A DNA stretch of 64,000 bases from positions 4,017 to 68,016 of the forward strand of contig JBBSVV010000003.1 in NCBI GenBank assembly GCA_038046625.1. Direction: 5' to 3'. Source of the stretch: an archaeon. GTDB lineage: Archaea; Iainarchaeota; Iainarchaeia; Iainarchaeales; Iainarchaeaceae. Under the pieces are notes generated by a model. That model worked only from the letters and a program-made list of their open reading frames with translations. It searched no databases and had not been told where the DNA came from. The translations under genes were made by a program, and so were the position numbers. Positions 1,962 to 51,204 of this stretch are shown piece by piece. How positions within the stretch are numbered: the first letter of the stretch is position 1; each line of letters begins with the position of its first letter.

Positions 1962-3683
1962 TCATTTCAACTGGCTAAGTATAACTGCTATTAAAGCCCC
2001 AAAAACCAGTATTCCAAGGCCTAAAACCCCTAGCAGGATATTTTGGCCGGTGAAAAGCTCCTGGATTTGCCCCTGCAAAGCCGGCTGTTGCGATTCGGGC
2101 TGCACCTCTTTTGCCTCGAGGGGCTGTTCCTGCACGGGCTTTTCCGGCACGATTATTTCGAATTCCCTTTCGACGCCGGCATTCACATTTACAGTCACTT
2201 TTCCGGGCTGAATGTTCTCTATTTTTTGCGTGAAGAGCTTTTGTGCTGATGCCTCAATGTTCACATTGCTCTTTGTTTCCTTTCCCAAGTAAATTACAGT
2301 TATTGTGGCTTCCCCTTCTGCATTGCCGTTGTTTTTAAGCAGAACCCTGAGTTCCAAATTGCTTCCATCAATGAACGGGCTCACGTCCTTGACGCTTATG
2401 TCGGCCGCTTTCTGTTCCGCGCCTTTCTTCTTCACGAGCTTTATTGTGCCGCTCATGTTTCCGTCCGGAAGAAGCAGGTACATTCCGTATGTGTAGTAGC
2501 CGTTCTTTGCCTCCTTGTCAGGCGCCTTCACTTTCCACGAAACCTCCTTTGTTTCCCGTGCTTTGAGGAAAATTATTTTGTTTTTTTGGTCCGCGCGGAA
2601 ATCCTCGTGCAGCGCAAGCTCCACCGGAAGTATCGCGTCCTCTCCCGAAACATTGGTTAATTGTGCCTTGATTTCAAAGCTTTCAAGCGGTTCAACTTCG
2701 GAGGGCTTTTCGAGCTTCGCGTCAAGCAGGCGCGTGAAGAACTCAACCGAATTTATTTTTATTTTCGGCTCCCCGAGCTGTGTCTGCACCTGAATCGCTT
2801 TCGCGCTTTTCGTGCTCAGGATTAAGTCCGCGGCTTTGTTCGCGTCGATTGTTTTTGCTATGGTGAAGTGCGCCGCGTCAAGGTATCCGGCCTCGCCATA
2901 AGTGCTGTCAACCCCTATCCAGCCGGTTCCCGGCAAATACGCCTCGAGCCAGCCATGAAGCCCAAAGCGCGTGCCGTCAAAGCTTATCCCCTTCACGTAT
3001 CTTGCGGGAATTCCTTTTGCGCGCAAAAATGCGGCGGTAAGGTTCGCGAACTCATCGCAGACGCCCGCGCGCGAATTGTATGTTTGTTTCGCGCTGTATG
3101 TGGCGCTGTAGTAGTTCTCGAAATCGTACGCAATGTTCTGGTTCACCCACTCGGTTATTCCGCGTATGGTTTCTATTTCAGAGTCGCTCGTGAATTCGAG
3201 CCGCGCCTTGCTCATTATTTCAGGGTCGCTTGATTCAATGTAATCGCTCGGCTTCTTATACTCCGGGAATTCCTTTATCGGGTTGGTTAGGTTGTAGTCT
3301 TCCCCAAGGCCGATTGCAGCGCTCCTCCTGACCCGCGCCTCCCTAATGATTTTGAATTGAGGTGCTTCCGCATACTCATGCAAATCATTTATTTTGTACA
3401 CCGCGTACTGCACCCCGTTTTTTTCTCCCCGTATCGGGAGAATTTTGTTCCCGCCTATTTCCATGTGCTCGTTCAGTTCAAGGAGCTCCTGGCCCTGTTC
3501 CTGCTGCATTGTGATGAACATTATTTCCATTTCGTCGCCTCTCGTTATTGTTCCGGAAAACGAGCCAGTTGCCTCTGAGGTTATGGTTACGTCCATGCTT
3601 TTCACGGTCGAGGGCCTGAATTCCTGCGCCGAAGCTGTTGAAAGCGCAAGAATAAACAGCAGCGCAAAAGCAATTTTTTTCAT
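1962..3683 (-). CDS. Secreted, C-terminally membrane-anchored transglutaminase-like cysteine protease domain protein
   Basis: N-terminal signal peptide (MKKIAFALLFILALSTASA) and C-terminal TM helix. Transglutaminase-like Cys/His/Asp core (GVCDEFANLTAAFLRAKGIP ... HGWLEAY ... GVDSTYG). Confidence 0.55.
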   Translation of the reverse strand: MKKIAFALLFILALSTASAQEFRPSTVKSMDVTITSEATGSFSGTITRGDEMEIMFITMQQEQGQELLELNEHMEIGGNKILPIRGEKNGVQYAVYKINDLHEYAEAPQFKIIREARVRRSAAIGLGEDYNLTNPIKEFPEYKKPSDYIESSDPEIMSKARLEFTSDSEIETIRGITEWVNQNIAYDFENYYSATYSAKQTYNSRAGVCDEFANLTAAFLRAKGIPARYVKGISFDGTRFGLHGWLEAYLPGTGWIGVDSTYGEAGYLDAAHFTIAKTIDANKAADLILSTKSAKAIQVQTQLGEPKIKINSVEFFTRLLDAKLEKPSEVEPLESFEIKAQLTNVSGEDAILPVELALHEDFRADQKNKIIFLKARETKEVSWKVKAPDKEAKNGYYTYGMYLLLPDGNMSGTIKLVKKKGAEQKAADISVKDVSPFIDGSNLELRVLLKNNGNAEGEATITVIYLGKETKSNVNIEASAQKLFTQKIENIQPGKVTVNVNAGVEREFEIIVPEKPVQEQPLEAKEVQPESQQPALQGQIQELFTGQNILLGVLGLGILVFGALIAVILSQLK

Positions 3684-3728: not shown

Positions 3729-3759
3729 TTTTTTTTCTCTTTGGAAGAGAAAAGAAAAC
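3729..3759. promoter_or_regulatory. TTTTTTTTCTCTT-tggaa-GAGAAAAGAAAA palindrome (family member)
   Basis: Inverted repeat seen directly, between the transglutaminase-like gene and tRNA-Val. Confidence 0.4.
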
Positions 3760-3850
3760 TTTGGCGAAAGAAAAGAGAAACCGGTTTTGACACTTTTCTT
3801 TGGTACAGCTTTTCAATGGCCTTTTCCTGCACTTTTCTTTTTAGCACGGA

Positions 3851-3956: not shown

Positions 3957-3960
3957 AACC

Positions 3961-3988
3961 TTTTTTCTTTTCTTGCGAAAAGAAAAAA
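3961..3988. promoter_or_regulatory. TTTTTTCTTTTC-ttgc-GAAAAGAAAAAA palindrome immediately 5' of tRNA-Val
   Basis: Perfect 12-bp inverted repeat with a 4-nt spacer, 5 nt from the tRNA 5' end. Confidence 0.5.
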
Positions 3989-4105
3989 CGTTGACGAAAA
4001 AAGAAAAGGCAAGTCCTGTTGCTGGAACAGCGTAGAATGAAGTGCCCTGATAGGGTTAAAAAAGTTGGCTAAAAAGGGAAAAAAGGCTTCTGAAGCAGAA
4101 GCCGT

Positions 4106-12765: not shown

Positions 12766-12801
12766 CGTATAAAAAACTTTTGCTGTTTTCGCACCGGCAC
12801 G

Positions 12802-12853
12802 CCGGAAACCGCCGGCGGTACGGTGTACTATCTTCGCCTTTGGGCTCGATAGT
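12802..12853 (+). repeat. Structured repeat element, copy A: CCGGAAACCGCCGGCGG module + ACTATCTTCGC-N-GGGCTCGATAGT core
   Basis: Near-identical modules at 19705-19752 and 43774-43825. The core also occurs at 46761-46788, 34380-34392 and 60523-60552. Flanked by direct repeats GCACCGGCA (12791-12799 and 12863-12871). A TATAAAAAA-like box lies ~25 nt upstream (12770-12781). Confidence 0.7.
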
Positions 12854-12917
12854 CCATGCTCCGCACCGGCAACCACCCCCTATATGGTTTTAAAAGCCTC
12901 GAAGATTTGCTTCTTTT

Positions 12918-14813: not shown

Positions 14814-15004
14814 AGCGGGATTCAAAGAAGATTGTGAAGTTCTGTTCCCGCTGCGGCTCAACGGATTTGAAGCCGCTTTATTTCATGGAAGCAATCGACA
14901 ATAGAATGCAGTGCATGGGCTGCAATGTGATTGAATTCCCTGTTGAGGGCACTGAAAAGTTTCGGAAAGAATTTTTGGAGGGAAGTAAAAATGCCGGCAA
15001 ATAA
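14810..15004 (+). CDS. Small zinc-ribbon protein
   Basis: CSRCGS...CMGCN CxxC pairs; 64 aa. Confidence 0.3.
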   Translation: MKRDSKKIVKFCSRCGSTDLKPLYFMEAIDNRMQCMGCNVIEFPVEGTEKFRKEFLEGSKNAGK

Positions 15005-18000
15005 CGAGGAAATCGGCACGGTAATAAGCAGCATGGATGGCCCTTCGCCGAGCGCATTGGATGTTGTTATTTATTCCGGAAAATTGCACCGCGGCCAGTT
15101 CGTTGAATTGGATTACAGTGAAGGAACCCTGGTTGCGCTTGTAACCGATGTAGTGAAAACAAACAGGTATTTTGAGCGCGTTGAATCCGTGAAGGAGTTC
15201 GAGCGTTCCGGCACGAAATTGTTCGAGCAGTTTCCTACTGCGGAGTGGGAATACCTTGTTGCAAAAACAAGGCCGCTTGGAGTTTATGATAAGGGCTTGA
15301 TTAAGCGCTCGACTTTTCCGCCTTCACCGGGCACAAAGGTTCGGGTTGCGGAGAAGGAAACGCTTGAAAAGTTTTTGGGCCTTGACCTTGAAAAGGGTTT
15401 GATGCTTGGGGAAATCGAGCACCACGGGGTTTTTGTGAAATTAAATCTCTCCCGCCTTTTCCAGAAGCATCTTGCGATTCTCGCAATGAGCGGCGCCGGG
15501 AAAAGCTATTTGGTTTCTGTTTTGCTCGAGGAATTGTTGGAGAGGAAGAAGGAGGATGGGCGCCTCGCTGTGATTGTGATGGACGCGCACGGCGAATACC
15601 GTTCTTTTGCCGAGCCTGTTCCCGACAAGAAGCACAGCGATTTTTCCTCAAAATCCAGGTTTGTGCGCGCCTCGGAAATCCAGATTGGTGTCCCAAAGCT
15701 TTCAATCGGTTTGCTTGCCGCGCTGATTCCTGGCCTTTCGGCGCCGCAGAAGCGTGACCTCGCAAGGGTTATTGAAAGATTGCGCAAGGAAATGAAAGAT
15801 GGCCTCGGGCCCTTTGACTTCAATGCGGTAAAGGCGGAGATTATGAAGGATTCTGAAATGAAGGAAGTAACAAAGATGTCTCTAATTGGGTGGATAATGT
15901 CCCTCGAGCAGCTTCACTTGTTTGGCAAGACTGATGCGCCCGGAATCAGCGATTTGGTGAAGCCGGGGCAGCTTACAATAATTGATTTGAGCGACGTGAT
16001 TGACCTTAAGAAGAAGCAGATTATTGTCGCGTATTATGCGCGCAAACTTTTTGATGAGAGGCGCGCAAAGCGTGTTCCTCCTTTCAGTATTGTTGTCGAG
16101 GAAGCGCATCAGTTCGCACCAGAAAGGGTTTCAAAAGAAGGTTCCATCAGCAAGCACGTGATTGAAACCATTGCCAGAGAAGGAAGGAAGTTCGGTGCGA
16201 GCATCTGTCTGATTTCGCAGAGGCCGGTTAACCTTTCAACTACGGCTTTGAGCCAGTGTGTTTCACCAGAAACTCAAGTGATTCTTTCAGACGGGCAGGA
16301 GTGTGCCATATCAGATTTCGAAAATAATTATTCCAAGACAAAATTAACAAGCTGCGATATTGAGAAAGGCAAATTGGAAGGGGCATATATTTCGCATTAT
16401 CAAAAAAATAATCCAAAGCAACAGGGGAAAAAATGCTTTGAAATAACTACTGTCGCAGGAAGACAATTAAAATGTACAGGCGACCACCCAATTTGGACAA
16501 AGGGAAAAGGATGGGTTAATGCGGCGGATTTAACTTTCAGCGATAAGGTGGCTATATTGCCGACAATTAAATCATATCCAGGGACTCCTGTTCTTGAAAT
16601 ATCTTCTGACTGCCTATCAGGTCTACTGCCTTCAACAATTAACAAGCAAAGATTGTTTGAAGAATTACAAGAAAAAGGTTTAATAGATAAAGAAATAGAA
16701 CCTCAAAAGATATTGGCTTTGGCGAGGCTCATCGGCCATATTTTTGGCGACGGTTCCCTGCATCCGCCTTACAAAAACAAACAGGGGCAGCATTCGCTGC
16801 GAATTACATTTTCAGGTTCGGAAGAAGATTTGCAGGAAATAAAAAACGATTTGGCATTTCTAGGCTTTAAGTCTGATCAAAAAATAAGCAGGCAAGTCAA
16901 AACTTCATATTCAAACTTTGTAAATTTTGGAAAAAGAAAAATTCACGGAACCTCAATATGTTTCAAAACTGGCATTGTAGGGCTTTGGGCTATTTTAAGA
17001 TTTTTGGGAGCTCCATTAGGGGATAAATCAAACACTAAAGTTTGTATGCCTAAGTGGATTTTAGATTCTCATATTTCCGTCAAAAGGGAATTCCTCTCAT
17101 CTTTGTGCGGAAGCGAATGTTCTGCGATAAGGTGGGACGGAAAATATCCTGATAGGCCTATTCTCCCATTTTCCAAGGTTGAATCGTTAAGCGGGAGCGG
17201 GCATTTGTATGCAAATAGTCTTATTTCTATGTTTCAAGATTTTGGAGTCAAGTCAAACTTATATGTAAGAGATTATGTGTGGAGAAAAGATGGCGCAAAA
17301 AGTCTGCAATTTATTATTTCGATAAATAGGTCGCGAAATAATTTGATTAATTTCTTGTCAAATGTTAACTATCGTTATGCTGTTAAAAAAAGAAGTGCGG
17401 GTTTGCATGTCTTAGAATATTTAAAATGGCTCAACATAAAACTTAATCAGAAAACAGGGCTGTTCAGCGAAGTAAATAAATCTGTCGGCGAAGTTGGTTC
17501 CAAGCAAACTTCATTGATTTATAAAATGCATAAGAAAGTTGTTGAAAACTGGGCAAGTATGGGTGTTGAAAAGTTACGACTCGCCCCGGCAGATAAAATA
17601 CCCGCTTATTCGTATTGGATAAAAGAAAAAACAGAGTCTCTTTCGGCTGGTTTAATTTGGGACGATGTAGAATATATTGAGCCCATTGTGCTTTCTGACG
17701 TAAGAGATATAACTGTTCCAAATCATCATTGTTTTTTTGCTAACGGATTTTTGACCCATAACTGCAACACCCACATTATTCTCCGTGTTACTAATCCTTA
17801 TGATTTGGACCACATCAAGCAGACCAGCGAGGGCATTGACCAAAGGACTGTTGACATGATTACTTCTCTCAGAACAGGCGAAGCCATAATTGTGGGCGAA
17901 GCCGTGAATTATCCCGTGTTTTTCAAGGTGCGCAAAAAAACCGTGCAGGATTCGCGGCACGAAAAGTCCCTCGAGGCTTCCGCTCTGGAGTTTGAGGAGA

Positions 18001-18041
18001 ACCGCGAGGAAAGGACAAAAGAACTTGATGATTTGCTGTGA
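14991..18041 (+). CDS. herA: HerA helicase (FtsK-HerA ATPase) interrupted by a 502-aa LAGLIDADG intein (nt 16257-17762)
   Basis: Walker A (AILAMSGAGKSYLV) and Walker B (IVVEEAHQFAP). The intein starts at Cys (SQ|CVSPETQVILSDG) and ends ...FLTHN|CNTHII, with LAGLIDADG blocks LIGHIFGDGSL / LSSLCGSECS. Start chosen at MPANNEEIG. Confidence 0.8.
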   Translation: MPANNEEIGTVISSMDGPSPSALDVVIYSGKLHRGQFVELDYSEGTLVALVTDVVKTNRYFERVESVKEFERSGTKLFEQFPTAEWEYLVAKTRPLGVYDKGLIKRSTFPPSPGTKVRVAEKETLEKFLGLDLEKGLMLGEIEHHGVFVKLNLSRLFQKHLAILAMSGAGKSYLVSVLLEELLERKKEDGRLAVIVMDAHGEYRSFAEPVPDKKHSDFSSKSRFVRASEIQIGVPKLSIGLLAALIPGLSAPQKRDLARVIERLRKEMKDGLGPFDFNAVKAEIMKDSEMKEVTKMSLIGWIMSLEQLHLFGKTDAPGISDLVKPGQLTIIDLSDVIDLKKKQIIVAYYARKLFDERRAKRVPPFSIVVEEAHQFAPERVSKEGSISKHVIETIAREGRKFGASICLISQRPVNLSTTALSQCVSPETQVILSDGQECAISDFENNYSKTKLTSCDIEKGKLEGAYISHYQKNNPKQQGKKCFEITTVAGRQLKCTGDHPIWTKGKGWVNAADLTFSDKVAILPTIKSYPGTPVLEISSDCLSGLLPSTINKQRLFEELQEKGLIDKEIEPQKILALARLIGHIFGDGSLHPPYKNKQGQHSLRITFSGSEEDLQEIKNDLAFLGFKSDQKISRQVKTSYSNFVNFGKRKIHGTSICFKTGIVGLWAILRFLGAPLGDKSNTKVCMPKWILDSHISVKREFLSSLCGSECSAIRWDGKYPDRPILPFSKVESLSGSGHLYANSLISMFQDFGVKSNLYVRDYVWRKDGAKSLQFIISINRSRNNLINFLSNVNYRYAVKKRSAGLHVLEYLKWLNIKLNQKTGLFSEVNKSVGEVGSKQTSLIYKMHKKVVENWASMGVEKLRLAPADKIPAYSYWIKEKTESLSAGLIWDDVEYIEPIVLSDVRDITVPNHHCFFANGFLTHNCNTHIILRVTNPYDLDHIKQTSEGIDQRTVDMITSLRTGEAIIVGEAVNYPVFFKVRKKTVQDSRHEKSLEASALEFEENREERTKELDDLL

Positions 18042-19691: not shown

Positions 19692-19704
19692 CAACCCTTT
19701 CGCG

Positions 19705-19752
19705 CCGGAAACCGCCGGCGGTAGGGCGACTATCTTCGCTTTGCTCGATAGT
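19705..19752 (+). repeat. Structured repeat element, copy B
   Basis: CCGGAAACCGCCGGCGGTAGGGCGACTATCTTCGCTTTGCTCGATAGT, just upstream of rpoK. A TTTTTAACAA TATA-like stretch lies ~25 nt upstream. Confidence 0.7.
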
Positions 19753-19827
19753 AAGGTATTACGCTCGGAACTACCTTTTTTAATTCTTTGCGTAGGAGTA
19801 TTGGTAGATTAATAACTCGTTTTTTGA

Positions 19828-22368: not shown

Positions 22369-22428
22369 CTGCTATCTAGCACCTGGCAGAGCAAAGCTCT
22401 GCCGGGCCTCGTACCCTACGGGTAGAAG
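22369..22428 (-). repeat. Structured repeat element, copy G (hairpin-module variant)
   Basis: The reverse complement aligns to 34270-34345. GTACCCGTAGGGTAC hairpin is shared. The second hairpin GGCAGAGC-tttg-CTCTGCC covaries with CGCAGAATC-ttct-GATTCTGC(A). Confidence 0.6.
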
Positions 22429-22471
22429 GAACCACATTAAAATGCCGAAAACTTTCGTGGTTTGCTATAAA

Positions 22472-22918: not shown

Positions 22919-22995
22919 TGAAAAAACCTTATTTTTAGCGGCATTATTTGTCTAGTATTCTCTATTGAGTTACCTTTAAAAAGGTTGATTTCAGC

Positions 22996-23021
22996 CTTTT
23001 TCTTTCTTGCGAGAAAGAAAA
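22996..23021. promoter_or_regulatory. TTTTTCTTTCT-tgcg-AGAAAGAAAAA palindrome upstream of the tRNA-like 5' fragment
   Basis: Same inverted-repeat family as the motifs flanking the tRNAs. Confidence 0.45.
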
Positions 23022-23103
23022 ACGCTGGCGAAAAAGAAAGAGACGGGGCATATTTTTGGCCATAGAACCTTTAATTAAGTGTTTTTCACCCATTTTTTTG
23101 CAC

Positions 23104-23140
23104 GGGCCCGTAGCTCAGCCAGGATAGCGCCCACCTCCGC
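23104..23140 (+). pseudogene. tRNA 5'-half-like fragment (acceptor + D-arm + anticodon-stem 5' strand), related to the 5' half of tRNA-Arg at 24216
   Basis: GGGCCCGTAGCTCAGCCAGGATAGCGCCCACCTCCGC aligns with GGGCTCGTCGCTA...ACGGATAAGCACCCCGCCTTCG. No matching 3' half follows. Its 3' 10 nt (CCACCTCCGC) are complementary to 23274-23283 (GCGGAGGTGG). Confidence 0.45.
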
Positions 23141-23396
23141 AATCGAATTTTTTCCTAAGACTCGGATTTTCTCGGCTTAAACCTTTGCACACTTCAACCC
23201 CTGCTTTTGGTGCAAAGGGTTTAATGCCTCCAAAACCCGCAAGACGTCTTTCGGAAAAAATTTCATCATTTAGCGGAGGTGGTCAAATGGTCGAAATTCC
23301 GATTCCAAACAAAGAAGAAATAGATTTAGCAGTAGAGGCTGAAGAGTTGACGGACAGGGAACTGTGGATTCTTAGCAAGTTTGGAGGTGATTTTGA

Positions 23397-24286: not shown

Positions 24287-24461
24287 CTGCACTTTCACGC
24301 AGAATCCTTGATTCTGCTGAAACCTGCACTAAAAAGAAAGAGTGCCGGAAAAAGAAAAGACCCCTGTTTCTGGCTCGGCAAGCCGTGCTTGGCCGGTTTC
24401 AATGTGGCCAGGGCTCGCTTTCTTTTAGGCAAGGAATTAATACTCGCAAGTAGTTGTATTT

Positions 24462-34142: not shown

Positions 34143-34240
34143 ATTAACAGCAATTGCCTATAAAGTGTTAAAAACACTTGGAAATCACTTCATTACATGA
34201 CAAGAGTCGCTGTTCTCGAGAAGGACCGTTGCATCACAAC

Positions 34241-34402
34241 AGTTTCGTCTGTTGGGTGCGAGTACTATCTCCTTGTACCCGTAGGGTACGAGGCCTCGCA
34301 GAATCTTCTGATTCTGCAAGGTCGCTTGGGCTCGATAGTAAGTTTGGTTATGGGTGTGAGGCACGATACTTCGCAGTTGACCTGCTTTGCGTTTGGTGAT
34401 GT
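34241..34402 (+). repeat. Structured repeat element, copy E (long form), inserted just upstream of abce1 and preceded by a diverged duplicate of the first 44 nt of abce1
   Basis: Starts ACAACAGTTTCGTCTGTTGGGTGCGA. Contains GTACCCGTAGGGTAC, CGCAGAATCttctGATTCTGC and GGGCTCGATAGT. 34197-34240 repeats 34406-34449 with 5 synonymous differences. Confidence 0.7.
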
Positions 34403-34405
34403 GAA

Positions 34406-36184
34406 ATGACTCGAGTAGCTGTTCTGGAAAAGGACCGTTGCATCAATGGCACGGGCTGTGATTACATATGCGGCCACGTGTGTCCAGTGAACCGCGCGGG
34501 AAAGGACTGCATTGTTCTAGATGAGGTTACAAACAAGCCCGTCATCAGCGAGGAGTTATGCATCGGCTGCAACATATGCGTAATTAAATGCCCCGTGGAT
34601 TGCATTTACATCGAGAACCTTGTCCAGGAACTGAACGAGAATCCTGTGCATCGCTTCGGCGAGAACGCGTTCAGGTTCTACAGGCTCCCCACAATAAGGA
34701 ACGGAGAAGTAGTTGGGTTGATTGGCAGGAACGGAATAGGAAAAAGCACTATCCTGAAAATAATTTCTGGCCAGCTGGTTCCAAATTTGGGGGATTACAA
34801 TTCAAAAGGCTCTTACGATTCGGTGATAAATTTTTTCAAGGGGAAGGAATTGCAGCGGCTTTTTTCCTCGCTGAAAGACAAGCGGATAAAGGTTTCTTAC
34901 AAGCCGCAGAACATAACTGATTTGCCCAAGGCGGCGAAAGGCACTGTGCGCGAACTCCTGAAAAAAACCGATGAGCGCAAAAAACTTTCCGAGGTTTCGG
35001 AGTTGCTGGGCCTCGGAAAAATTTTGGACAGGGAACTCTCGCACTTGAGCGGAGGAGAATTGCAAAGGGTTGCGATTGCCGCGGCCTCATTGAAGGATGC
35101 TGATTTGTATGCTTTTGATGAGCCAACTTCTTATTTGGATGTGAGGGAGCGCCTCAATGCCTCCAAGGTTTTGCGCGGTCTTGCGGAATCCGGAAAGGCG
35201 GTTGTTTTGATTGAGCATGACCTCGCGGTTCTTGATTACTTGAGCGATTATGTGCACCTTCTTTACGGAAAAAAATCGGTTTACGGAATAGTTTCAAAGC
35301 CGAAGAGCGTTCGCAATGGCATTAACGAGTTTTTGGAGGGCTTTGTGAAGGATGAGAATGTTCGGTTCAGGAGCACAGAGCTGAAATTTGAGGTCAAGCC
35401 TTCCACGGATTTCAGGAAAAAGAAAGTTATTGCTAGCTACCCGGAACTCAAAAAGTCCTTCAAGGGATTTTCCCTCGAGGCTGAGGCGGGGGATTTGCGC
35501 GAGGCCGAGGTTCTGGGAATAATGGGCCCCAATGCAATAGGCAAAACGACTTTCGTGAAGATGCTTGCCTCCGTTGAGAAGCCAGATTCAGGGAAGATTG
35601 ATTTTTCCATGCATGTTTCCTACAAGCCACAGTACCTTGTGCCTGAAAAGGGCGTTACTGTTGGTGATTTTATTGATTCTCAGGACCTTGATCTCTCGGT
35701 TTTCAAGAATGAGGTTGACCGAAGGTTGGCAATTACAGAGCTGGAAAATCACTTGCTTGAGGAATTGAGTGGCGGCGAGCTCCAGAAGATTGCTGTCGGA
35801 GTGGCGCTTTCGCGCACGAATTGCGAGCTCGTTCTTTTGGATGAACCAACCGCTTTTGTTGATGTTGAAGATAGGCTGAACATGGCTGATGCAATCCGTT
35901 CCGTAACAGATGCGAAAAAGAAGATTTGCATGGTTGTTGACCACGACATTTTGTTCCAGGATTATGTTTCTGACAGGTTGATGGTTTTTTCTGGCGAGCC
36001 CTCCGTGAAGGGCTTTGCGGGCGCCGCAATGTCAATGCATGACGGGATGAATTCTTTCCTCAAATCGGTTGGAATTTCTTTCAGGCGCGACCCGGAAAGT
36101 GGAAGGCCGCGTGCAAACAAGTTGCATTCGCAGCTCGACCAGGCGCAGAAGAAGAAAGGTGAGTATTACTATCTCGTGGATTGA
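34406..36184 (+). CDS. abce1: ABCE1 / RNase L inhibitor (Fe-S cluster + twin ABC ATPase)
   Basis: N-terminal Cys-rich ferredoxin-like domain (CINGTGCDYICGHVCPV ... CIGCNICVIKCP). Two Walker A/B + LSGGE ABC cassettes. Confidence 0.85.
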   Translation: MTRVAVLEKDRCINGTGCDYICGHVCPVNRAGKDCIVLDEVTNKPVISEELCIGCNICVIKCPVDCIYIENLVQELNENPVHRFGENAFRFYRLPTIRNGEVVGLIGRNGIGKSTILKIISGQLVPNLGDYNSKGSYDSVINFFKGKELQRLFSSLKDKRIKVSYKPQNITDLPKAAKGTVRELLKKTDERKKLSEVSELLGLGKILDRELSHLSGGELQRVAIAAASLKDADLYAFDEPTSYLDVRERLNASKVLRGLAESGKAVVLIEHDLAVLDYLSDYVHLLYGKKSVYGIVSKPKSVRNGINEFLEGFVKDENVRFRSTELKFEVKPSTDFRKKKVIASYPELKKSFKGFSLEAEAGDLREAEVLGIMGPNAIGKTTFVKMLASVEKPDSGKIDFSMHVSYKPQYLVPEKGVTVGDFIDSQDLDLSVFKNEVDRRLAITELENHLLEELSGGELQKIAVGVALSRTNCELVLLDEPTAFVDVEDRLNMADAIRSVTDAKKKICMVVDHDILFQDYVSDRLMVFSGEPSVKGFAGAAMSMHDGMNSFLKSVGISFRRDPESGRPRANKLHSQLDQAQKKKGEYYYLVD

Positions 36185-43224: not shown

Positions 43225-43800
43225 TCACCCACTCTGGCCGAATGTGACTTTTGTTTCGGATCCGATTTTGTCCACTTTTGCAATGAATATGGCGCCCTGC
43301 ACTCCGGTGTTTACCTCACTCGGCGAGCATGAGAATGAGGCTCCTGCATCGAGCTCTTTCGTGCATTTTTTGTCTGCATCAGGATCCAAATCCAAGGCCA
43401 AGTCATCATCCGCATTGTTTTTGCATTCTTCGGGGACGCGGGCTGAAATCTGTTCAAGCCCCGCATCAAGCGGAACAACAAGGTATGAGAAACCTATCCC
43501 TGCAAAGTTCGTGGACGGTGGGGCCGCAGGAACGCAGTAAATTTTTGATTGCGGCGGAATAACAATTTCTATGGTCTGCCTTGTTCCGGCGCCGGATATT
43601 GAAACGTATTGTGCCGCGTTCACGAGCTTGTCGGCAGAGGCGCGGAGCTTCGCGAGGTTTGCGGTGTCGTTCATTGCATTGCTCGCAATGTCCGCGTTCG
43701 GCTGTATTATTGCGACTATGTAAAGCAGTGAAACCACGAGTATGAGCAGAAATTCTATGCTCGCCTGCCCCCGCCGGAAACCGCCGGCGGTATGGTGCCC
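43225..43800 (-). CDS. Pilin-like protein whose N-terminal signal peptide (RRGQASIEFLLILVV) is encoded by repeat element C; start codon unresolved
   Basis: Class III signal motif RRGQAS-IEFLLIL. No in-frame ATG within 50 codons upstream. The coding frame runs through the CCGCCGGCGG palindrome. Confidence 0.4.
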   Translation of the reverse strand, partial: GHHTAGGFRRGQASIEFLLILVVSLLYIVAIIQPNADIASNAMNDTANLAKLRASADKLVNAAQYVSISGAGTRQTIEIVIPPQSKIYCVPAAPPSTNFAGIGFSYLVVPLDAGLEQISARVPEECKNNADDDLALDLDPDADKKCTKELDAGASFSCSPSEVNTGVQGAIFIAKVDKIGSETKVTFGQSG

Positions 43801-43915
43801 TATCTTCGGTTTTGGCCTCGATAGGTCTTGCTTCGCAATTTTCCCGTTCAAAATATCAAGTTCCACAACAGTTTCGGCTGTTGGGTGCGATAGCCCATGC
43901 TGTCGCATGGACTTG
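43774..43915 (+). repeat. Structured repeat element, copy C (module 1 + hairpin module CAACAGTTTCGGCTGTTGGGTGCGATAGCCCATGC), with a diverged duplicate of the prepilin-peptidase gene 3' end
   Basis: CCGGAAACCGCCGGCGGTATGGTGCCCTATCTTCGGTTTTGGCCTCGATAGG, then a ~45-bp direct repeat (43827-43870 versus 43916-43960). Confidence 0.65.
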
Positions 43916-43940
43916 GCGTTGCTTCGCAACGCAGGCTTAT

Positions 43941-46702: not shown

Positions 46703-46788
46703 CACAATAGTTTCGTCCGAGAATGCGCCTCGGAAGGGTGCCAAGATTGTTGGGTACGACTGCTATCTTCGCCGTGGGGCTCGATAGT
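46703..46788 (+). repeat. Structured repeat element, copy D, at the junction between the two tandem flaJ-like genes
   Basis: ...GGGTACGACTGCTATCTTCGCCGTGGGGCTCGATAGTAA. Flanked by imperfect direct repeats TTCATCCCCTCC (46687-46698) / TTCATCCCACC (46814-46824) that contain the stop/start junction GGGATGAAA. Confidence 0.6.
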
Positions 46789-46813
46789 AAAAACATTTGC
46801 GTGTGTCATTTTT

Positions 46814-47968
46814 TCATCCCACCTTCGGTTGGGTTATTTTTAAGTAGAACACGAGGAACCCAAGCACAAGCGGCATTGCAACCAAATAAATTGCCGCTAT
46901 TGCTATCGGGGACAATGCAACGCTTCCCACGGAAATCGGTGCATTGGTTATGGAGCCTATTATTCCGATGAAAACCGGCACCACTATTGCGGCGAAAATG
47001 TATATTACTCCGAAGAAGTTCATTTTTTCCGAGAACTCGCGGACCGCAATGCGCATGTCGAAGCTCACGTCCTCGGCAATTGTGTTCATTATGTCCGAGA
47101 GGTTTCCCCCGGTTTTCATTGCGCGTATTATGTGCAGGAGCGCGTTGCGCAGCGCCTTTGACTGTGTCCTTAAAGCGAAGTGCCTTAGCGCGTCTTTCGT
47201 GTCCGTTCCTTCCTCGACCTCGTTTATTGTGCGCGCGAATTCTTCGCTCAGCACGCCGTAATCTGAGGTCGCTATTGTCTGCAGTGTTTTGTAGAGGCCT
47301 ATTCCGGACTTTAATTCGGTCGCCATGTGCCTCAATGCGAAGGGCAGCTCCACGCTCATGGCGTCGCCCCTTCTTTGTGCGTTGCTTTTCGGTACGAGCA
47401 TCAGCGCTACAAGCGCGAACATTCCCACTGCGCCGGAAATGAGGATTGAGTAAAGCAGGTTCACCTTGTACACGAAGCTCAGTGCGGCAATGATTGCAAA
47501 TGAAAATATTCCCGCAAGCGTTGCGGCCGCAAGGGAAAGCGCGAGCCATTGCTGGAGCGAGTACTTCATGTTTGCGGAGTAAAGGTAATACCGCACATCA
47601 TTCGCGAGCGGCAATTTTTTTATGAGGCGTGAAACCGGGTCAAGCGGCAGCCTGAGCATCAGGTAAAGTTTTCCAAGGCTCTTTATCGCAGGGCTCTGGA
47701 ATTCCTGCAAATCTTCAACGGTCTGGACGTTTATTTTTGCCTGTTCGCCCTCGGCAATTATTCCCCTCAGCTCCCCAAGCTTTCCCCCGACTTCCTCGAA
47801 TTCAATGCCCTGTTCACGGTACTTTTTTTTCATGCGGTCGACTATTTTTTCTACCTTGTCCATGTCCACGGTTTCCTGCGCGTCCTTTCCCGCAGTCGTC
47901 TGCTTTTTTTCTTCCTTTTTTTCCTCGATTTTTTTTCTCAGGTCGCTCAAAGTGCTCATGGTGTTCAC
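46814..47968 (-). CDS. FlaJ/TadC/PilC-like membrane platform protein, copy 2
   Basis: Same architecture as 45732-46688; 384 aa. Confidence 0.6.
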   Translation of the reverse strand: MNTMSTLSDLRKKIEEKKEEKKQTTAGKDAQETVDMDKVEKIVDRMKKKYREQGIEFEEVGGKLGELRGIIAEGEQAKINVQTVEDLQEFQSPAIKSLGKLYLMLRLPLDPVSRLIKKLPLANDVRYYLYSANMKYSLQQWLALSLAAATLAGIFSFAIIAALSFVYKVNLLYSILISGAVGMFALVALMLVPKSNAQRRGDAMSVELPFALRHMATELKSGIGLYKTLQTIATSDYGVLSEEFARTINEVEEGTDTKDALRHFALRTQSKALRNALLHIIRAMKTGGNLSDIMNTIAEDVSFDMRIAVREFSEKMNFFGVIYIFAAIVVPVFIGIIGSITNAPISVGSVALSPIAIAAIYLVAMPLVLGFLVFYLKITQPKVG

Positions 47969-50900
47969 TTTTTTTTCATTGAGTACTGCTTTACCGCTTC
48001 GGAGATTTCTTTCATGCTTCTCCTGTTTTCCTTCACGAGCTTTTCGAGGTATGCCGCCCTGTCCTTGACCTCGTCATCAAAGTCCTTTTTGGACATTCCC
48101 GCGAGTTCCTGGAGTTTTTGGGCGTAATTTATCTGGGCTTTTGTCCTTTTTAGGGAGTCTGTTACCGGGTCGCGCAGGTATACGGCTTCGGTTTTCGGCT
48201 TGCCTTCAAGGGCGCCGGTCACTTGGGCAATTTCGGTTATTCTCCTTATTGTCCCCATTTTCCTGTCGTGCAGCCTGTGCTGTACAACTATTATGTCGAG
48301 CCCGGAAAGCATTACTTGCGGCACGTTCATCGGCGGGTTTGTCACCCTCACGATTGTTTCCTGTGCCGAGTTTGCGTGCACTGTTCCGAGTGAATTTCCC
48401 ACGATTATTCCCTGTGCCACGAAATTATGGGGGTTCCTGCCGGTTTGCCTTTCTTCGCTTACCGTCAGGTCATATACAAATCCGTTGTATGGGTATGAGT
48501 GTATGGCAATTACCTTATCCCAGAAAATGTCGGATTCCGCGAGCAGCTTAAGCTTTGAGGATTCAATTCCCGCAGATTCAAATGCCTTGGCGAGTGCCCC
48601 GACTGCACGCCTGCTCGGCGTCCTTTCCCTTCTTTTGTAAAAACTTATTGCTCCTTGTGTTAATCCTGCCATTCTCGCAATTTCAGAATTGCTGTACCCC
48701 TTTTCTTTTTTTGCCGTTTTGAGCAGTTTTATTATGGTGCCGTTGCATTCTATGGTGTCGGTATTCGTGTTGCTTTCTTTTCCCCTGCCGAGCAGTTCCT
48801 CTATTTTCCTTATTTTTTCGGGGAATTTTACCGGGTAGGTTTTGTAGAATTTTTCCACTTGGTCTATTCCATAAATATAGAGCCTGTACCATCTGCTGTT
48901 GTGTGCGCGTGACTCGTATTTTCTGGAGGTTATCCCTTCCGTCAATAATGCATAGCGGAAAAAATCTATGTAGTGCTCGTTTGCGCATGAAATGACGATT
49001 GCATTGTTGTTTGCATCAACATGCCCTTCTGCGTCAAAAAAGCCCGCGACAAACCCGCGCAGGGAGTTCGTGTAGTGTGAATTGGACATTTTTGCTTTCT
49101 GCCTGCTTCCCGCGGGGATGTCAAGCATTTCCATAATCTTTGCGGTTTTCTTGAACCCGCTTATGTGCGCTTCATAGCATTGCTTTTGCGGGCGCGGGTT
49201 CACTATTTTCACGTGTGTCCCATCGAGGTTTTCTTTCATGTAATTTATGAATTTCGGGATTATGGTTTCCTCTTCTGTGTAGAGGTTTATTGAGCCTTCA
49301 TTGCACAGGTATTGCTTGCCGTTTTTTTTCCTTTGCCTTTTGTAATAGGTTATGTTTCCGTCACCGTGCAGCAGGCCACTCCAGTATTCGCTCTCGGTTT
49401 CTTTTGCGTTTTCTTCCCTGAGCAGCTTTCTCGGGGTTGCAATGTTTTGCCCTTCCTTGAGAGTGTCCGCCCTTGCCTGTTGAATGTTGTCCGCAAGAGT
49501 ATAGAATGGGTGGTTTCCCGTGCAGGTTAGTTCGCTGCCGGAAGCAAGCTTTATGTGGTAAACGTTGCCTGTGAAAGGCCTGCGCCTTGCCTGCACGATT
49601 TTTTGCCTGTTCACTTTCCCTTTGCCGTCCACAGAGTTGATGTGCTCATCGCCCACAGTGCACACTTCCCACTCTCCTTCTTTCCGGCTGCCGTTTTTCT
49701 GCAGTTGCTCTTCCGTGAATTGGCCGATTTCGCGTATTCCCGAAGTCAGCGCTATTTTTGCTTCGCCCGTAAGGCAACCGTCATGCCCCGTGTTGAATGC
49801 CGTGAACAATGAGAACGCCTCATCATGCCTGATTTCGCCGACAATTATCCTGTCAGGGCGCATTCTCAGGGAATTTTTCGTGAGTATGTCAAGCGTTACC
49901 TCTCCGGTTCCTTCAAGCCCAGGCGGCCTTGCTTCCATCCTTATCCAGTGCTTCAAGGGAAGGTTCAGTTCGGCCGTGTCCTCAATGGAAATTATCCTTT
50001 CTGTTTCCGGTATGAATGTTGCGAGCACGTTCAGCGTTGTGGTTTTTCCGGAGCCGGTTCCGCCTGAAATCAGTATGTTTGCGGGTTTCGTGCCCAAGCC
50101 ATCGGTGCATGCCCACAGGAATGCGGCGGTTTCCGCTTCAATGGTTTTGTTTTTTATGAGGTCTATTATTGTGTAAGGGTCTTCGCGGAACTTTCTTATT
50201 GTCAATGTGGAGCCCTGCACCGAAGCGGGGGGAATTGTTGCGTTGACCCTGCTTCCATCAGGGAGTCTCGCATCAAGGAGCGGGCTGCTGATGTCCACCC
50301 TTCTTCCTATTTGCCTTGCAATCCTGTTCACGAGATCCTGTATTTCATTGTCGTTGTAGAACTCGATGTTCGTTATCATCATTCCGTATTTCCTGTGGAA
50401 AATGTAAACCGGCCTGTTCGGCGCGATGACCATTATTTCCTCGAGCTTGTCATCGTGAATCAGGTCGTCTATTATTCCGTACCCTATCATTTCCCGTATT
50501 ACCGTGTTCGCATAAAAATCAAACCGCGTTTTTGGTATGTTGAGTTCCGGGGAGTCGCGGAGAATCTCAAGCACTTTCTGGTAGTAAACGTTCTTTCTCT
50601 GCTCCGGGTCGCGGATCTTGTAAGGCGTAATGCTGATTACCCTTGTCGCGGCCTCCTTGATGGTGTTGATTATTGTTTTTTCCGCCCCCACAGGCCTTGG
50701 CACGGGTATCCAGTAGTAAAGCAGGGGCTGTCCCGGGAGCTCGTAAATTTTGGCGTTTCCATAGGAATCAATGAGCTTTTTTTCGGATGTTTCCAGTTCC
50801 CTTTCCGCGGTGGATTTTTGTTCCTCGGGAACGCTTTCCGGGTTTTGCGGCGCGTTGATATTTTCCTGTGGCGGGAGCGTGCTCTTTATTTCCGCTATTT

Positions 50901-51204
50901 TCTGCTTGGCCAGCATCACTTCTTTGGCGGCTTTCTTCTCTTCATCTTCCTTGTCCTCGCTTTGCGCCTTTTCAGGTTCTTCGCTGCGCATCTGCTCAAG
51001 TATAAGGTTTTTTTTGCCCGGCAATGGCTTCGGTTCCGTGTGCCATGGCTTTTTCCCCTGGGCTTGTTGAATCTGTGCGGGATTTTTTTTTGCGGGCTCG
51101 GGCTTCACGGCTTTTTTTTGCGCGGCGTCTTCCGGCTTTCCGGGTTGTTTTGCGTCTTTTTTTGCCTTTGCCTTTTCAAATAGCGCGTCGAGATAATCTG
51201 GCAT
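47965..51204 (-). CDS. FlaI/PilB/VirB11-like secretion ATPase with a K/E/P-rich N-terminal extension, interrupted by a 461-aa LAGLIDADG intein (nt 48394-49776)
   Basis: Walker A ISGGTGSGKTTTLNVL. The His box is split FNTGHDG|CLTGEAKIAL...GIIVGN|SLGTVHANS. Intein endonuclease blocks LLHGDGNI and FVAGFFDAEGHV. Confidence 0.8.
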   Translation of the reverse strand: MPDYLDALFEKAKAKKDAKQPGKPEDAAQKKAVKPEPAKKNPAQIQQAQGKKPWHTEPKPLPGKKNLILEQMRSEEPEKAQSEDKEDEEKKAAKEVMLAKQKIAEIKSTLPPQENINAPQNPESVPEEQKSTAERELETSEKKLIDSYGNAKIYELPGQPLLYYWIPVPRPVGAEKTIINTIKEAATRVISITPYKIRDPEQRKNVYYQKVLEILRDSPELNIPKTRFDFYANTVIREMIGYGIIDDLIHDDKLEEIMVIAPNRPVYIFHRKYGMMITNIEFYNDNEIQDLVNRIARQIGRRVDISSPLLDARLPDGSRVNATIPPASVQGSTLTIRKFREDPYTIIDLIKNKTIEAETAAFLWACTDGLGTKPANILISGGTGSGKTTTLNVLATFIPETERIISIEDTAELNLPLKHWIRMEARPPGLEGTGEVTLDILTKNSLRMRPDRIIVGEIRHDEAFSLFTAFNTGHDGCLTGEAKIALTSGIREIGQFTEEQLQKNGSRKEGEWEVCTVGDEHINSVDGKGKVNRQKIVQARRRPFTGNVYHIKLASGSELTCTGNHPFYTLADNIQQARADTLKEGQNIATPRKLLREENAKETESEYWSGLLHGDGNITYYKRQRKKNGKQYLCNEGSINLYTEEETIIPKFINYMKENLDGTHVKIVNPRPQKQCYEAHISGFKKTAKIMEMLDIPAGSRQKAKMSNSHYTNSLRGFVAGFFDAEGHVDANNNAIVISCANEHYIDFFRYALLTEGITSRKYESRAHNSRWYRLYIYGIDQVEKFYKTYPVKFPEKIRKIEELLGRGKESNTNTDTIECNGTIIKLLKTAKKEKGYSNSEIARMAGLTQGAISFYKRRERTPSRRAVGALAKAFESAGIESSKLKLLAESDIFWDKVIAIHSYPYNGFVYDLTVSEERQTGRNPHNFVAQGIIVGNSLGTVHANSAQETIVRVTNPPMNVPQVMLSGLDIIVVQHRLHDRKMGTIRRITEIAQVTGALEGKPKTEAVYLRDPVTDSLKRTKAQINYAQKLQELAGMSKKDFDDEVKDRAAYLEKLVKENRRSMKEISEAVKQYSMKKK

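Follow-up and report, generated by a model that had tools for sequence, protein, structure and literature searches.

Introduction

How tRNA introns, split tRNAs and duplicated tRNA fragments arose in archaea is a long-standing question. Sugahara et al. (2012) reported mobile-element-driven disruption of tRNA genes in Caldiarchaeum (PMC3293823), and the transposition of tRNA introns in Thermoproteales has been reviewed (PMC4033280). In those cases, insertions duplicate tRNA fragments and create introns, and related sequences occur in the introns of different tRNAs, but the elements are kilobase-sized and encode an integrase or recombinase, or the introns are defined by bulge-helix-bulge (BHB) similarity alone. 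Here we describe an element whose structured head of about 65 nt is common to introns, tRNA flanks and non-tRNA sites across the DPANN superphylum; neither source describes such a module or its insertion signature. The element was recognised in a 64,000-nt stretch of an Iainarchaeaceae genome (GCA_038046625.1, contig JBBSVV010000003.1, positions 4,017 to 68,016 of the forward strand; hereafter, the window), where an original prediction had likened it to a dif-type recombinase site. In our view it probably represents a family of non-autonomous mobile elements widespread in DPANN archaea, perhaps inserted by a target-primed mechanism. It is apparently undescribed, since no description was found in the searchable literature, including by literal sequence.

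The element resembles miniature inverted-repeat transposable elements (MITEs), Correia and BOX elements, and repetitive extragenic palindromes and bacterial interspersed mosaic elements (REP/BIME) in being short (60–170 nt), non-coding, multi-copy, and intergenic or just inside gene ends. It is also modular with nested and tandem copies, strongly folded, and polymorphic for presence or absence among close relatives, as they are. It differs from them in lacking terminal inverted repeats, in duplicating 10–49 nt of target rather than a short and fixed length, in having one precise end, and in carrying a conserved pseudoknot and hairpin instead of transposase-binding ends. With short interspersed nuclear elements (SINEs), in particular stringent pairs of long and short interspersed elements, and with R2-type target-primed reverse transcription, it shares variable-length target duplications, short non-autonomous copies and an association with tRNA genes. 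As in those systems, one end is joined precisely and bears a conserved stem-loop or pseudoknot, and the other varies or is truncated, at least one copy showing microhomology there. It differs in having neither an A-rich or simple-repeat tail nor an RNA-type G·U excess. The variable-length duplication with one precise and one variable junction found here is the pattern by which non-long-terminal-repeat retroposons and SINEs are recognised. We know of no such SINE-type retroposon in archaea or bacteria, and of no reverse transcriptase partner for the element.

Target duplications of tens of nucleotides are made by the IS1634/IS1549 and IS1202 groups of insertion sequences and by casposons, which prefer tRNA 3' ends and have duplications fixed at 14–15 bp. 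These elements are kilobase-sized, encode DDE transposases or Cas1, and carry terminal inverted repeats. Eukaryotic introner elements are likewise small non-autonomous insertions whose target duplication aids persistence as introns, but their splicing is spliceosomal rather than of the BHB/EndA kind, their target duplications are fixed and they carry terminal inverted repeats. The element behaves as a MITE- or SINE-type parasite, yet fails the defining tests of MITEs, of REP and palindrome-associated transposable elements (PATEs), of attC and of dif.

Occurrence of the element in the window and across archaea

The recurrent motif is the second hairpin (hp2) of the ~65-nt module, in which a first hairpin (S1) and a linker precede it. 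Its recurrence was far above chance: with at most one mismatch allowed, ACTATCTTCGC occurred 4 times in the window against 0.68 expected, and GGCTCGATAGT 6 times against 0.57 expected, and none of 100 shuffles contained as many of either. Five window copies, A to E, share the complete-hairpin pattern CTATC-TTC-G(C/G)(C/T)-loop-(G)GC-TC-GATAG, and their coordinates had been predicted correctly to within 1–3 nt. A further recurrence on the original list, 34380–34392, is merely a fragment inside the tail of a real copy, F, and the supposed core variant at 22369–22428 has no hp2 core but is an inverted copy of one expansion hairpin of the large form described below. A covariance model built from 46 copies, a check proposed with the original prediction, gave 105 matches in 84 sources, so the family extends beyond the window. 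With its filters off, the model detected seven copies in the window: A, B, C, D, E, a degenerate copy C' and the large-form copy F (L-numbers below denote loci of other genomes).

When one genome per GTDB species was scanned for the exact pattern, at least 114 loci were obtained. About 87 of the 114 matches listed were archaeal, nearly all from DPANN or Altiarchaeota metagenome-assembled genomes (MAGs), and spanned Iainarchaeum/Diapherotrites and the Micr-, Alti-, Aenigmat-, Nano- and Undinarchaeota. Several loci per genome were often found among the matches listed, with at least 10 in Ca. Iainarchaeum andersonii, and tandem and partial copies were present at L002, L051, L109 and window C/C'; the element has thus proliferated within genomes. 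The claim of a dispersed family of small structured elements was therefore borne out, and the finding is larger than first thought, a DPANN-wide family rather than a peculiarity of the window. Viral contigs contained only bare hp2-like hairpins, with no S1. The 27 bacterial matches among those listed lacked the upstream features and formed a chance-like background, with two exceptions, L024 and L025. L024, labelled Chloroflexi, carries a complete element adjoining tRNA genes. In L025 (a Saprospiraceae MAG; 3077–3268), three exact hp2 sequences in both orientations lie within 200 nt, each bordered by TTTTACGGAATAAATTCCGTG hairpins; this bacterial tandem repeat, unrelated to S1, is due either to convergence or to transfer.

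Rfam searches at the gathering threshold reported four tRNAs only in the window and nothing at the copies, and at E≤10 gave only chance hits, to copies A and B and to the large form, none of them above 15 bits. This agrees with the earlier statement that the element matches no known non-coding RNA family.

Structure of the element and compensatory changes in its helices

Hairpin hp2 is composed of CUAUC, a UUC·UC internal loop and a GC-rich stem; its sequence, CUAUC-UUC-GS...SC-UC-GAUAG, was nearly invariant, and the UUC/UC internal loop was essentially without variation. In the archaeal matches it was always preceded by S1, of 5–8 bp and with sequences unrelated between copies, and by a linker leading directly into hp2. 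Two S1 subfamilies were present in the window, a CGCCGG type (A, B and C) and a CAACAG type (C', D and F). The upstream module CGCCGGAAACCGCCGGCGGTAnGG was confirmed as common to A, B and C, and the perfect palindrome CCGCCGGCGG reported within it turned out to be the 3' strand of S1 (CGCCGG/CCGGCG). At the UUC bulge, hp2 accepts two additional hairpins, which gives a large form with a four-way junction.

In the covariance-model alignment, S1 was 93.7% paired and all six of its pairs covaried, with four pair types each; the three outer pairs of hp2 covaried as well. Compensatory variants of CUAUC/GAUAG, namely UUAUC/GAUAA, CCAUC/GAUGG, UCAUC/GAUGA and CUGUC/GACA, came from copies beyond the reach of the exact-pattern selection. 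The covariation score was 0.417 compared with 0.108 for shuffled alignments (reached in none of 500 shuffles), and controls with slid alignments were 24–40% paired, compared with 87.8% in the true register. The inner stem of copy C has changed in a compensatory manner from GCC/GGC to GGU/GCC, an argument for a strand that folds and against a protein site in duplex DNA. Pairing of the S1 loop with the linker gives an H-type pseudoknot in many copies, for example ACACCU/AGGUG in L073, CACGC/GCGUG in L017, AGGUC/GACCU in L053 and ACCG/CGGU in copy A. At least four Watson-Crick loop-linker pairs were present in 42% of copies, compared with 10% after partners were swapped (0/200 as high).

These results bear directly on the recombinase-site reading. 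The outer arms ACTATC/GATAGT form an inverted pair around an asymmetric, conserved inner sequence, as would be seen at a XerA site, but what looked like asymmetric halves is a conserved 3x2 internal loop together with a short stem that covaries. A dif/Xer site needs two ~11-bp arms, a fixed 6–8-bp centre and one site per replicon. Here, the CTATC-to-GATAG distance was 12 to 18 nt across the window copies and about 50 nt more in large forms, and the so-called spacer was 3–10 nt, with about 50 nt added in large forms. In addition, the arms covary so that pairing is kept, there are 7 copies per 64 kb and many per genome, and the copies are part of a larger fold bordered by target duplications. 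Such duplications are not made by dif or attC recombination. The proposed arrangement of two 11-bp arms and a 6-bp spacer is not supported; the dif-like interpretation is wrong in detail, and we consider a XerA site highly improbable.

A single-stranded DNA hairpin element of the REP/BIME, IS200/IS605-PATE or attC kind, moved by an HUH transposase or a tyrosine recombinase, would account for helices that are nearly pure Watson-Crick (G·T being no commoner than A·C, as DNA hairpins would show), for the conserved imperfect palindrome with its asymmetric internal loop, and for the numerous intergenic copies. Many S1 stems also end in CAAC...GTTG, recalling the R''/R' cores of attC, and integrons have been reported in DPANN archaea. 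However, an attC site is a single long hairpin with R''/L''...L'/R' boxes (RYYYAAC/GTTRRRY) and extrahelical bases, whereas the element has two hairpins with loop-linker pairing, its hp2 lacks R boxes, and CAAC/GTTG occurs only at some S1 bases; covarying loop-linker complementarity, seen in about 40% of copies, is foreign to such sites. Arrays of attC stand behind promoterless cassettes beside IntI, but the copies here are scattered, form no cassette arrays and have no integrase among 20 window open reading frames (ORFs). PATEs and the REP sequences moved by REP-associated tyrosine transposases use a fixed tetra- or pentanucleotide target without duplication. The element, by contrast, shows no GTAG-type REP signature and no common target motif, and it duplicates 10–49 nt of unrelated sequence, while single-stranded systems insert without duplication or at a fixed short target. 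No Y1/HUH transposase or integrase was found when the 20 window ORFs were compared with Pfam, whole genomes not being searched. We judge this explanation to be unlikely, if less so than a dif-like site.

Several other interpretations of the fold were tried and rejected. A K-turn or L7Ae site would require a G·A register that, on either strand, breaks five covarying Watson-Crick pairs. There is no ACA box and there are no C/D boxes, as an H/ACA or C/D small RNA would have. A tRNA, split tRNA or permuted tRNA was discarded because no cloverleaf can be drawn and ARAGORN and Rfam were silent at the copies. The layout of hairpin, loop pseudoknot and hairpin is pistol-like, but a self-cleaving ribozyme was rejected because an enclosing P2 helix is missing and Rfam gave no signal at E≤10. 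Neither hp2 nor the 50-nt expansion is a BHB intron, as their junctions form no bulge-helix-bulge in either register. Reading S1 and the linker as a promoter (TFB-recognition element and TATA box), though tempting where genomes are AT-rich, fails for GC-rich copies and leaves the loop-linker covariation unexplained. Further conserved hairpins stand behind hp2 in L029 (6225–6304), L092, L041 (1839–1930) and L103, including CGA-CUGA-GCGAAGC-GAUG-UCG, which resembles a C'/D'-type K-loop and, judged by sequence, may supply longer variants of the element with an L7Ae site.

Empty sites and target duplications

Empty orthologous sites were found in relatives for copies A, B and F. Copy A occupies 12800–12861 (+) and is flanked by an exact 10-nt direct repeat, CGCACCGGCA, at 12790–12799 upstream and 12862–12871 downstream (both +). 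The same site is empty in L117, where NurA is 71% identical and a single CCGCACCGGCA stands upstream of nurA, and L116 agrees. At the site of copy B, L116 and L117 have a 63–80-nt spacer before rpoK and no element, and B itself is bracketed by two decayed repeats of ~20 nt that hold the rpoK TATA region. The TATA box that had been credited to B as its own promoter is therefore a duplicated piece of the rpoK promoter region created by the insertion. At the site of copy F, the pelota-ABCE1 spacer of L123 and L124 is 7–58 nt long and empty. The 40-nt repeat around F lies at 34197–34236 (+), the first 13 ABCE1 codons, and at 34406–34445 (+), the true ABCE1 start; its 5 mismatches are all synonymous, and its local alignment score was 55, compared with at most 23 in shuffles.

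Elsewhere, the element was flanked by exact direct repeats of 13, 13, 14, 15, 16, 17, 19, 20, 27, 27, 28, 29, 46 and 49 nt. The repeated sequences are target DNA and are unrelated between independent loci; no common target motif was seen at the repeat boundaries. Duplication length, 10–49 nt overall, varied within one genome (10 nt at A, ~20 nt at B and 40 nt at F) and also within one subfamily. The element is thus inserted at breaks staggered by 10–49 nt, with duplication of the target. A general rule that the duplication starts at a start codon or transcription start was rejected: it applies to F, L083 and L015 but does not extend to all copies.

The two junctions differed. On the S1 side the junction was precise, the upstream repeat mostly ending 0–2 nt, and at most ~10 nt, before S1. 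The far junction was variable, with the downstream repeat beginning 3–107 nt past hp2, and long tails held pieces of other copies, additional hairpins or an S1-like module in inverted orientation (L038 and L041). The first 4 nt (CGCA) of the downstream repeat at A coincide with the end of the tail ...GCUUCGCA of its sister copies (C, L006, L067, L085 and L109), a case of junction microhomology.

Proposed mechanism of insertion

To our knowledge, no described prokaryotic transposition mechanism combines duplications that are long and variable with a single precise, structured end and a lack of inverted repeats. This signature points to a further enzyme in the reduced DPANN genomes, and the element is best filed as a small non-autonomous mobile element with a possibly unprecedented insertion mechanism that bears on the origin of tRNA introns. 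Target-primed copying is favoured by the asymmetry of the junctions, by duplications that vary in length and by far ends that are truncated or composite. It is preferred to DDE cut-and-paste given the lack of inverted repeats and of a fixed stagger, and to single-stranded HUH- or attC-type transfer because those systems make no duplication. The ~65-nt head (S1, linker and hp2) would serve as a cis-acting recognition module for an enzyme encoded elsewhere, and copying would begin at the structured terminus, the template being the strand complementary to CUAUCUUCG, with S1 at its 3' end. As had been proposed, whatever mobilises the element probably acts in trans, none of the 20 window ORFs compared with Pfam being a candidate, a result limited to those ORFs.

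Copies would persist where they are harmless, that is, flush to tRNA ends, in promoter and 5' regions, or within spliceable tRNAs. The long duplication regenerates a promoter (B), a start codon (F, L083 and L015) or an entire tRNA end, and copies inside tRNA genes would be spliced out as BHB introns. A bolder version holds that this is the first archaeal target-primed, retroposon-like non-autonomous element, with its pseudoknot-hairpin terminus copied into staggered breaks, and that its insertions into tRNA genes are a general source of long BHB introns, tRNA-fragment duplications and structured tRNA flanks in DPANN archaea; it would then be an archaeal counterpart of the introners. We regard this version as speculative and rather doubtful.

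Several observations weigh against a mobile, target-primed element. The pseudoknot was seen in only ~40% of copies and is broken or weak in copy B, and the near-invariance of hp2 across phyla is partly an artefact of the exact-match scan. In the helices, G·U pairs numbered 30 and A·C mismatches 27, so the counts showed no G·U excess and no strand asymmetry and do not reveal which strand matters; they lend no support to an RNA-only constraint and would fit a DNA-level or two-strand one, and any RNA intermediate is hypothetical. (A strand call from folding energy was discarded, as it is confounded by the GA mismatch bonus.) Terminal inverted repeats were absent at the duplication-bounded copies A, L083, L023 and L012, and no flanking repeats were detectable at C, D and E. 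Neither a poly-A tail nor any other retroposon hallmark was seen, and there was no link to a reverse transcriptase, for which no genome-wide search was made. The Pfam scan of the 20 window ORFs revealed no mobilising enzyme, other loci not being searched. Finally, the flush placement at tRNA ends could reflect retained function rather than target choice.

Copies at tRNA genes and within tRNA introns

In about 20 of about 95 archaeal copies, hp2 lay 23–34 nt from a tRNA boundary, as called by ARAGORN with introns allowed, and S1 lay 0–3 nt from the tRNA end, in both orientations. Roughly a quarter of copies abut a tRNA gene end at 0–3 nt, so that the element is enriched at tRNA genes. S1 began 0–3 nt past the 3' end of a tRNA on the same strand in L022, L038, L065 and L090, among others, and 0–3 nt from the 5' end of a tRNA on the opposite strand in L074, L077, L079, L082, L100, L020, L092, L041 and L109. 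Three sense-strand copies were located inside tRNA introns at the canonical position (L093, Gly-CCC; L114, Arg-UCG; L010, Arg-CCU), and the ARAGORN tRNAs were intact after removal of the element-bearing introns of 81–115 nt. In L114, a 4-bp central BHB helix was traced by hand. Other introns of 70–190 nt at these loci contained the same type of module, a hairpin with a complementary linker. At L034, L024, L089, L038 and L002, antisense copies had duplicated tRNA 3' parts on their flanks, so that one intact tRNA is regenerated. The window copies lie outside RNA genes.

One ~65-nt module thus occurs in introns, flush at tRNA ends and at ordinary intergenic sites, and relatives have empty sites, which makes intron gain by insertion directly testable. 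The same placements could be explained by function. The copies would then be small RNAs or cis-acting modules for tRNA processing or stability, with a fold that is transcribed along with or beside tRNAs and other genes and bound by a conserved protein. They would help to form tRNA ends, to splice or circularise introns, to terminate transcripts or to protect them, and mobility would be secondary. The near-invariance of hp2, including its internal loop, across DPANN phyla is in accord with this view, as are the sense-strand copies in tRNA introns and directly behind tRNA 3' ends and the tRNA-Gly with its flush element, an arrangement conserved between the genomes of L041 and L079. The second copy of L109 shows two G·U pairs on the CUAUCUUCG strand, the innermost hp2 pair is U·G in 7–8 cases and A·C in 1, and B is preceded by a promoter-like box and followed by a T-run. 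However, orientation to genes and tRNAs is unfixed (sense, antisense, head-to-head and convergent), with C and D antisense to operons. A, B and F are missing from the same loci in close relatives, and many copies are decayed, truncated or nested. There is no overall excess of G·U over A·C, and the promoter of B is the duplicated rpoK piece. We therefore hold a primarily functional RNA to be a possible but improbable explanation, and continue to favour the mobile element.

A second repeat family, CAACC-TTTTTTCTTTTC...GAAAAGAAAAAA-CGTTGAC-GAAAAAAGAAAAGG, was observed in the window. It forms a pyrimidine/purine hairpin with another purine run behind it, and these runs indicate a potential for triplex formation or alternative pairing. 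It is flush on the 5' ends of tRNA-Gly (1839–1895) and tRNA-Val (3957–4011), lies near tRNA-Arg, and recurs at 3730–3780, 22995–23045 and 24312–24362. The motif stands directly ahead of hp2 in L019 and L088 and ahead of tRNAs in L034, L003 and L038; from its sequence it resembles an AU-rich S1-linker module that lacks hp2. At 23107–23140 the window contains GGGCCCGTAGCTCAGCCAGGATAGCGCC, which resembles a tRNA 5' half and has a TATA-like box ~30 nt upstream; within this region ARAGORN made no call, even with 300-nt introns allowed. CCACCTCC is complementary to GGAGGTGG ~200 nt downstream (23346–23353). The segment at 23107–23140 may be a tRNA fragment duplicated by insertion, or a highly disrupted tRNA.

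Arrangement of the individual window copies

The window copies are spaced 3–15 kb apart on both strands among housekeeping genes, which include NurA, an intein-bearing HerA, Rad50, two FlaJ-like proteins, ABCE1, pelota and a topoisomerase; over the comparable part, the window is 88–96% identical to Ca. I. andersonii. The covariance-model match of copy A spans 12794–12858 (64.7 bits, E 3.8e-14). Its S1 lies at 12800–12817 (CGCCGG/AAACCG/CCGGCG), its hp2 at 12825–12855 with the core at 12828–12852 (+), and its tail at 12856–12861; in the pseudoknot, loop ACCG (12808–12811) pairs with CGGU (12821–12824). Copy B (19697–19757, +; 48.7 bits) sits between a gene for a 499-aa protein and rpoK, with S1 at 19703–19720 and the hp2 core at 19730–19751; its pseudoknot is weakened, the loop being ACCG and the linker GGGC.

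Copy C (43766–43837, +) is 85% identical to A over 66 nt and lies antisense between two minus-strand genes. Its S1 is at 43772–43789, its hp2 core at 43800–43824 and its conserved tail GUCUUGCUUCGCA ends at 43837; the model match covers 43766–43830 (63.5 bits). The neighbouring C' (43860–43916, +; 19.8 bits, E 0.005) retains an intact CAACAG-type S1 and linker, its hp2 being deleted. Copy D (46736–46793, +; 34.3 bits; hp2 core 46763–46787) lies antisense between two flaJ-like genes. Half of its S1 has decayed, and S1 is intact (CAACAG/CTGTTG) in the Ca. I. andersonii ortholog L060. Copy E (60518–60577, −; 29.8 bits; hp2 core 60524–60551), with a decayed S1, is in the 5' region of the ATP-cone gene, and an ortholog is present in L057.

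Copy F, within the 5' end of ABCE1, is a large form at 34237–34405 (+), with a model match at 34231–34344 (32.5 bits). S1 (34237–34254) and the linker (34255–34264) are followed by a split hp2, in which CTATCT (34265–34270) is separated from TCGC..GATAG (34322–34338) by a two-hairpin expansion of 51 nt (34271–34321). In the tail (34339–34405) are pieces of another copy and a GGTGAT that resembles a Shine-Dalgarno sequence. A relative of the expansion hairpin, without an hp2 core, lies upstream of rad50 at 22369–22430 (−); 22398–22430 and 34270–34302, the first hairpin of the expansion, form an inverted repeat of 33 nt that is 91% complementary. A 70-codon ORF (34197–34409) opens at the duplicate of the ABCE1 start, runs uninterrupted through F and closes with an ATGA that overlaps the true ABCE1 start, with GGTGAT ahead. 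At least 2 of the 5 differences between the 40-nt copies arose in the upstream, supposedly non-functional copy, and the fact that all 5 are synonymous hints, at the sequence level, that both copies may be translated.

Expansions, assembly gaps and inteins

Close relatives differed by the exact presence or absence of the expansion. A and B are simple hairpins in the window, but in Ca. I. andersonii the element at the A site has a 50-nt expansion inside hp2, and that at the B site a different two-hairpin expansion of 48 nt (fold z = −5.0). These orthologs, at 130–245 and 5620–5750 of L115, carry their 48–50-nt expansions exactly between CTATCT and TCGCC of hp2, without duplication, and the second expansion hairpin (CCUCG...CAAGG) covaries between the two. 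The expansion could be due to gene conversion between copies, or to a second small element that targets the hp2 bulge. In L081 of the same species, the element at 2925–2985 has a ~52-nt hairpin with the ends CAACGAATT...AATTCGTTG nested directly behind the 3' strand of a CAACAG-type S1. Hairpins with CAAC...GTTG ends may be mobile in their own right.

Runs of N occur within tandem element copies in L002 (3232–3331), L034 (3540–3639) and L046 (477–576). They are 100-N scaffold gaps, and an interpretation as masking was rejected. Evidently the repeats break short-read assemblies of these MAGs, and the element thus explains assembly gaps in them; it also accounts for spurious N-terminal extensions and upstream ORFs in annotation, and can be used as a DPANN-wide marker.

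Inteins were noted in two window genes, HerA (14931–18041, 1036 aa) and a FlaI/T2SSE-type ATPase (47965–51204, 1079 aa), the latter with additional LAGLIDADG and helix-turn-helix domains. The HerA orthologs are 514 aa long in Ca. I. andersonii (L115) and 850 aa long in L116, which indicates that intein content differs between close relatives.

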